DNA of 64,000 nucleotides from Octopus vulgaris. Taxonomy: Eukaryota. Made by a program: the position numbers and the translations under genes. The DNA lies in NCBI GenBank assembly GCA_951406725.2, contig OX597838.1, positions 14,756,001 through 14,820,000 on the forward strand, read 5' to 3'. The notes beneath the pieces were generated by a model. The model saw only the letters and a list, made by a program, of their open reading frames with translations, searched no databases and was not told the DNA's origin. Below are positions 61,336 to 61,926 of the stretch, piece after piece. Position 1 is the stretch's first letter; each line of letters starts with the position of its first letter.

Positions 61336-61926
61336 GTGGCACACGTGGCACGTAAAAAGCACCATCCGACCGTGGCACGTAAAAAGCACCATCCGACACG
61401 TGGCACGTAAAAAGCACCATCCGACACGTGGCACGTAAAAAGCACCATCCGACACGTGGCACGTAAAAAGCACCATCCGACACGTGGCACGTAAAAAGCA
61501 CCATCCGACACGTGGCACGTAAAAAGCACCATCCGACCGTGGTCGTCTGGCACCTGTGCCAGTGGCACGTAAAAAGCACCATCCGACCGTGGCCATTTGC
61601 CAGCCCCGTCTGGCACCTGTGCCAGTGGCACGTAAAAAGCACCATCCAACCGTGGCACGTAAAAAGCCCCCACTACAATCACGGAGTGGTTGGCGTTAGG
61701 AAGGGCCACTCGTATTGCGACGTTAGAGGTGAAATTCTTGGATCGTCGCAAGACGCACTGCAGCGACGGCGTGTGGCAAGCACGTTTTCCTCGATCAAGA
61801 GCGAAAGTCGGAGGTTCGAAGACGATCAGTCTGGTGCAGTCTTCTGGCTTCCCAGATCCCCAGTCGAACCGTCCAACCCATGCTAGCATGGAAAGCGGAC
61901 GCTAAATGATGATGATGATGATGATG
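61336..61926 (+). mobile_element. RTE-tailed retroposon with a 28-bp tandem array and a captured 18S rRNA piece
   Basis: Seven tandem CACGTGGCACGTAAAAAGCACCATCCGA-type units (61342-61539), then the family body, the 18S segment and the (GAT)n tail. Confidence 0.85.
61703..61829 (+). pseudogene. 18S rRNA fragment (~127 nt) embedded in a retroposon
   Basis: CGTATTGCGACGTTAGAGGTGAAATTCTTGGATCGTCGCAAGACG...ATCAAGAGCGAAAGTCGGAGGTTCGAAGACGATCAG matches the conserved eukaryotic SSU rRNA core. The helix TTGCGACG/CGTCGCAA is intact. Confidence 0.93.

Follow-up and report, generated by a model that had tools for sequence, protein, structure and literature searches.

A host 18S rRNA piece inside the 3′ UTR of an octopus RTE-like LINE, possibly laid in by repair of a DNA break

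Within a 64,000-nt stretch of the Octopus vulgaris genome (contig OX597838.1, positions 14,756,001 to 14,820,000; hereafter the window, whose numbering is used throughout), a short piece of 18S rRNA sequence lies between two collinear halves of one retroelement. How did ribosomal sequence come to replace an internal part of a mobile element? A preliminary description of the locus answered with a double template switch, in which a reverse transcriptase jumped from the element RNA to rRNA and back again at short shared words. The locus comprises the following features, all on the + strand.

61334..61338, repeated at 61924-61928, + strand: candidate target duplication of 5 nt, weak, three of its letters belonging to the tail
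61339..61706, + strand: LINE 5′ part, repeated units and a conserved block that extends to GGGC; alignable with the L143 (LINE copy) 3′ UTR
61703..61706, + strand: left junction, the 4-nt word GGGC common to LINE and 18S; the junction 23-mer is unique in the genome
61703..61829, + strand: 18S piece, sense, 127 nt, 127/127 to the rDNA array, all 15 CpG intact
61824..61830, + strand: right junction, the 6-nt word GATCAG common to 18S and LINE, then one base
61831..61926, + strand: LINE 3′ end and three-base repeat tail, 81/82 identical to the nearest copy, L066

The origin of the inserted sequence was examined in the 2.8-Gb assembly of 227 contigs, in which the locus occupies a contig of 45.6 Mb. 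The Rfam family SSU_rRNA_eukarya matched positions 61693-61791 (62.5 bits, E = 2.9e-14), and the limits of the match between 61703-61829 and host rDNA coincided exactly with these two ends. Seventeen other genomic places were identical over all 127 positions (40 matches scored of 44 candidates), eight of them in units ~18 kb apart on contig C20, one of which holds 18S, 5.8S and 28S. Identity to the host array rules out a non-host 18S donor. The donor sequence is the host's own 18S, in the same orientation as the element, as had been proposed. The preliminary description also took a helix that differs from its vertebrate counterpart on both arms to be the sign of a copied functional rRNA. That helix is the sequence of the host rDNA, and so says nothing on whether RNA or DNA served as template. 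In the units at L041/L042 (G000:C20), the host 18S measures ~2.5 kb and the 28S 4.9 kb; ITS1 there contains three internal repeats of ~360 nt each, and the spacer consists of many subrepeats.

The three family copies on which the earlier reading relied (8950-9172, 25070-25418 and 33014-33290) read as quoted, and the family proved to be of another kind than the retroposon or SINE proposed. One of its 18-mers occurs in at least 86,533 exact copies genome-wide, and longer copies extend upstream into coding sequence. A protein search for the LINE returned 35,459 candidates, and several frames of >1000 aa were present among the 150 that were scored. L143 carries a single frame of 1047 aa with matches to Exo_endo_phos (E = 3e-9, an N-terminal AP-type endonuclease) and RVT_1 (E = 1e-31), no other + strand frame of ≥150 aa occurring in the 1.1 kb upstream of it. 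Its 3′ UTR of 830 nt consists of repeated units and a three-base tail, and the halves at the locus belong to a 3′ UTR of this type (84/96 to the L143 3′ end). A SINE as host element was ruled out, since the flanks are the 3′ UTR of an ORF-bearing autonomous LINE. The family ends in short tandem repeats and not in poly(A), which is a feature of the RTE clade; the RTE-like label is our assumption from this architecture together with C-terminal motifs characteristic of the clade. The host at the locus is thus the 3′ UTR of a 5′-truncated RTE-like LINE at ~61339-61926, the upstream part of which (61339..61706) is built of five identical 28-mers, 27-mers, one 50-mer and one 63-mer. Octopus RTE-clade LINEs such as RTE-2_OV are similar in description: according to the accessible text of PMC9115989, their single ORF of ~1050-1110 aa encodes both endonuclease and reverse transcriptase, and their 3′ UTR is long.

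Both junctions carry the shared words first reported, GGGC on the left and GATCAG on the right. One correction concerns the right junction: the LINE does not resume directly behind the right-hand word, 6-7 of its bases having been lost there, and the single base that follows the word fits neither parent. The right-hand word is of six letters at the locus and of seven between the two parents, and the spacing from the word to the point of resumption is 1 base at the locus as against 7 or 8 in family copies. The net exchange is therefore 117 rRNA bases in place of 23 LINE bases, plus the 6-7 LINE bases gone. The shortened right-side form was found at 66 other places, compared with 86,533 exact copies of the family 18-mer (<0.1%), and one of the 20 places inspected was a chance match outside the LINE family. 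With a form so rare in the family, the extra loss of 6-7 bases likely belongs to the event itself. When random pairs of 18S and LINE positions were taken, 0.35% shared a 4-mer and 0.022% a 6-mer, which indicates that the right-hand homology is no accident.

A search for the junctions had been suggested as a means of telling a one-off event from a repeat subfamily. The left-junction 23-mer gave one match genome-wide at ≤1 mismatch, and LINE halves stood on both sides of the piece in only 1 of 40 piece matches, which is this locus. These results rule out an rRNA-containing SINE subfamily. Taken alone, the locus is a passive scar left by a single event, and nothing points to a function or to further spread. 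Around the whole element, the only direct repeat found was the 5-nt one listed above, which overlaps the LINE tail; numerous members of the family lie within microsatellites, in which a target duplication is unreadable.

The origin that we consider on balance probable is a DNA break in an already inserted LINE copy, closed during repair by a patch for which 18S rRNA or rDNA was the template. The copy would have broken within the 23-nt stretch, and the right break end would have been trimmed and paired with the template through 6-7 shared bases. Synthesis would then have continued 117 bases into 18S sequence, before the extended end came free and was linked to its left-hand counterpart at GGGC. 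The likeliest form has an rRNA fragment as template, with the LINE's own reverse transcriptase or polymerase theta as the enzyme.

The small deletion, the 4- and 6-nt shared words and the foreign base are the marks of class 2 templated insertions. In the available part of the review PMC5110952, these marks are given as micro-deletion, microhomology and a non-templated base, with experimental sizes of 73-414 bp; class 2 TSIPs are patches of 70-400 bp from a distant locus, with no poly(A) and no clear target duplication. The present insert resembles them: its source is a distant intact locus (the rDNA array, on another contig), a micro-deletion is present, as are microhomology and a base without a template, and neither poly(A) nor a duplication occurs at its own ends. 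It differs in its 18S donor, in the invertebrate germ line and in the recipient, a LINE 3′ UTR. Neither rRNA nor ribosomal is used as a term in that review.

Dispersed rRNA pieces were surveyed with four short queries, and 64 loci were analysed: 24 from the first two queries (from which arrays, long units, L149, L150 and the duplicate L156 were left out), 20 of 21 new places from the third and 20 of 42 rows from the fourth. Removal of seven long or cut loci left 57, both members of the duplicate pair L146 and L147 among them. Each 110-nt query yielded ~20 dispersed pieces, which extrapolates to roughly 500 short rRNA pieces genome-wide. Collinear repeat halves were present on both sides of 5/57 pieces (this locus, L151, L163, L174 and L192; L188, with one collinear match on spacer-like sequence, was not counted). 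At random points the corresponding figure was 21/100, a rate that may be overstated because the control library was made from the study's own loci and the window. Accordingly, rRNA pieces are not enriched in repeats. That they are common in the genome, and mostly outside recognised repeats, speaks for a repair patch. The LINE 3′ UTR covers 5% of the window, so that chance landings of rRNA patches in it would be expected; by a rough estimate, ~500 pieces and at least 1% of the genome in this LINE 3′ end would give several.

The other repeat-hosted pieces took varied forms. L151, L163 and L174 (G000 C27, C2 and C15) are sense 18S pieces of 119, 228 and ~400 nt in SINEs, each in place of 10-20 SINE bases. 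L192 (G000:C23:22070700-22072600, at 800-1141) has a tRNA-headed SINE with a 28S piece of 100 nt, which occurs as three tandem copies with 20-odd SINE bases between them and joined at a 7-nt word common to SINE and 28S. A sixth case, L154 (G000:C5:147089200-147090400), was found by translation: a 136-nt 18S piece (97%) lies antisense in a LINE ORF with a few bases missing, and the reverse-transcriptase frame stays open over 150 aa to either side of it. From its motifs we take this LINE to be CR1/L2-like. Five of the six pieces are in sense and one is antisense (p = 0.22). The longer shared word was on the priming side in L004, L151 and L174, the arrangement was reversed in L192, and L163 was ambiguous; no weight is placed on this pattern.

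The order of host insertion and rRNA insertion was assessed by comparing the divergence of the host repeat with that of the piece. For L163, the host differed from the family majority at 27/116 positions and the piece at 10/228 (p = 4e-7), a difference that persisted with the nearest copy as reference (20/111, p = 7e-5); for L192 the values were 20/123 and 3/102 (p = 8e-4). L151 gave 9/129 against 1/119 (p = 0.02), and 4/148 with the nearest copy (p = 0.39), while host and piece of L174 were of equal age (11/105 against 29/398, p = 0.31). At the present locus the LINE halves differed from the family majority at 6/129 positions and the piece at 0/127 (p = 0.03). Against a repair patch, this gap vanished when the nearest copies were used instead (2/130 against 0/127, p = 0.5; 4/135, p = 0.12), and neither an empty allele nor one lacking the patch was seen. 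The upstream unit array is almost free of mutation, which suggests that the LINE copy as a whole may be no older than the piece.

In at least two cases, L163 and L192, a sense-oriented replacement was thus made in a much older copy. With hosts far older than their inserts, these cases indicate that sandwich anatomy alone is no proof of a double switch. The preliminary description had drawn the double switch from anatomy, and that step is not sustained: the same form occurs in the older hosts of L163 and L192, and L154 lies antisense in a LINE ORF. Some caution is warranted, since sandwiches of element, RNA and element with shared junction words are often taken as double template switches.

A double template switch in a single retrotransposition event nevertheless stays in contention, as a possibility that we rate below even chance. 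By this route, ~95 bases would have been copied from the tail, followed by a slip between two CTGG repeats, a jump to 18S at the shared word, copying of 117 bases, and a return to the still-bound LINE RNA at GGGC. All blocks have the same orientation, the point of return lies only 23 nt upstream of the point of departure, and the possible youth of the whole copy and the weak 5-nt duplication agree with such a route, even though that duplication is not a convincing one. Switching of the simpler kind was sought among the dispersed pieces. None of the 56 pieces other than this locus was immediately followed by a sense RTE 3′ end; L152 has the LINE upstream with no tail, and L036 an antisense tail upstream. 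Single-switch products should outnumber double ones, so their absence counts for a repair patch and against the double switch, as do the older hosts of the similar-looking L163 and L192 and the lack of enrichment in repeats.

Evidence for template switching in this genome came from four places. In L028 (G000:C18:28553598-28556714, ~1399-1960), an 18S piece abuts the 3′ end of a SINE, and a second SINE has since split the arrangement; as read by eye, the last 35 SINE bases stand behind the 18S piece and all of this lies inside a 17-nt duplication. L028 is the best case of a single switch onto 18S, and such switching likely occurs here. In L174, where host and piece are of equal age, the shared words are ~6-7 and 11 nt, again as read by eye. 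These two loci, together with the sense orientation of 5/6 repeat-hosted pieces, stand against a repair patch. A full-length U2 snRNA copy in the window (48439-48686, + strand, ~93% to gene copies) is followed by 7 bases of the gene's downstream sequence, directly after which come the terminal 49 bases of the LINE found at the locus, together with its tail. No target duplication was seen at this U2 copy, and the LINE tail stood behind U2 in 1/30 U2 loci examined. Lastly, in L064/L105 (G000:C4:141117500-141120515) a LINE copy passes from the end of its ORF to the late 3′ UTR by way of a shared word of 4 nt and also has a short slip deletion like that at the present locus, so that internal jumps at shared words are seen as well.

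Both a repair patch and a double switch are mechanisms of known kinds. Precedents for the latter include tripartite chimeras (PMC2104539), U6 with RTE-like LINEs (PMC4476161) and 28S/L1 (bioRxiv 10.1101/2025.02.02.635956), each as described in the accessible part of the source. The tripartite chimeric retrogenes of PMC2104539 share with the locus three blocks in one orientation and a LINE 3′ end in last place. As presented in the same portion of that paper, they consist of three different RNAs, with outer blocks that end at RNA ends and with duplications of 14-16 bp, whereas the outer blocks here are collinear halves of one element with a weak 5-nt duplication. Moreover, tripartite structures can arise by two independent events, as noted in the available text of PMC4476161. 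The 28S/L1 and U6/LINE chimeras (bioRxiv 10.1101/2025.02.02.635956; PMC4476161) resemble the locus in having a piece of 50-480 nt in sense joined to a LINE 3′ end; unlike it, they have a single junction, and the RNA piece opens the insertion at its 5′ end. Eighteen human 28S/L1 chimeras, 83% of them in sense, are given in the accessible part of bioRxiv 10.1101/2025.02.02.635956, where 18S has no occurrence in the main text and the supplement could hold such cases. A search of literature listings, covering a minority of subscription papers, turned up no description of 18S sequence that takes the place of part of a LINE, and none of cephalopod rRNA patches. The words rRNA and chimeric are likewise absent from the main text of the octopus repeat annotation PMC13282606.

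The favoured repair patch could be copied from RNA or from DNA, and the ends of the dispersed 18S pieces bear on this. Seven pieces (L015, L024, L028, L034, L038, L146 and L147), six of them independent, end at the same two bases (+187/188), 60 nt downstream of the right junction of the locus and near the tip of a predicted hairpin. This hairpin is presumably that of expansion segment 7. Of the eight independent 18S pieces whose ends fall in an 81-nt stretch, six stop at these 2 bases and two elsewhere (crude p = 2e-7). Clustered ends at a hairpin tip fit cut rRNA fragments; a DNA hairpin is also possible. An ITS2 query gave 19 matches, six of them outside arrays and long units and four of those six <350 nt, none of the dispersed matches exceeding 93%. 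Since short dispersed ITS2 pieces exist, precursor RNA or rDNA can donate too. The long orphan units are 100% identical in the 18S piece and only 84-87% in ITS2.

A DNA-only ectopic event, either gene conversion or a stalled-fork switch that took rDNA or an rDNA circle as template, involving neither break-end capture nor an RNA step, is improbable. The dispersed ITS2 pieces, which extend the donors beyond mature rRNA, agree with it, as does the capture of rDNA pieces at breaks in Dna2-deficient yeast cells described in the accessible text of PMC11724301, which the favoured repair patch matches as well. Ordinary gene conversion, however, needs more homology than words of 4-7 nt provide, and the 18S ends clustered near the hairpin tip fit cut RNA.

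The reality of the left junction was also examined in read data. When the left part was compared with contigs of 4 read runs, 0 of 32 pieces examined bridged the junction, in a set with 42,836 more and dominated by repeat contigs; the loose contig ends at the left junction in this same set were the two parental forms. Four of 24 read runs contained at least half of the sampled words, shares that are reachable without the junction words. An assembly or library chimera is the least probable explanation of all, for although both parents are high-copy and no examined contig bridged the left junction, a comparison so swamped by repeats cannot show absence, the 127-nt piece is embedded in a contig of 45.6 Mb, bases were lost and a foreign one gained at the junction, and aged events of the same form occur elsewhere.

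More tentatively, the repair patch may be one of a wider class. It is conceivable, though we think it rather unlikely, that hundreds of germ-line breaks were repaired with reverse-transcribed rRNA fragments, many of them cut at one 18S hairpin tip, with an RTE-like reverse transcriptase as the repair polymerase and the present locus among the youngest examples. Were this so, repeat-hosted pieces would expose the empty site, and RNA-templated repair would become countable and datable in an invertebrate. Recurrent rRNA patches are for this purpose more useful than a single locus: a dated census could measure the frequency of germ-line RNA-templated repair, and could also show whether a reverse transcriptase does in fact go back to the template on which it began.

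Further arrangements were seen among the dispersed pieces. The 92-nt 18S piece of L146 and L147 (G000:C2:69327900-69335200) sits midway between the arms of a long inverted repeat and is bounded on either side by a palindromic word; its two occurrences are 6 kb apart. Many dispersed 28S pieces in L177-L191 start within a few bases of one site, and several have a common A-rich upstream sequence. We take this site to be the R2 insertion site, which the 28S query also overlapped. Some of the 57 pieces, including this 28S set, are possibly 3′ flanks of an R2-like element. In the window itself, a tRNA-headed SINE lies at 60760-60990 (− strand), 350 bases upstream of the locus, and is of the SINE family that hosts L151 and L163.
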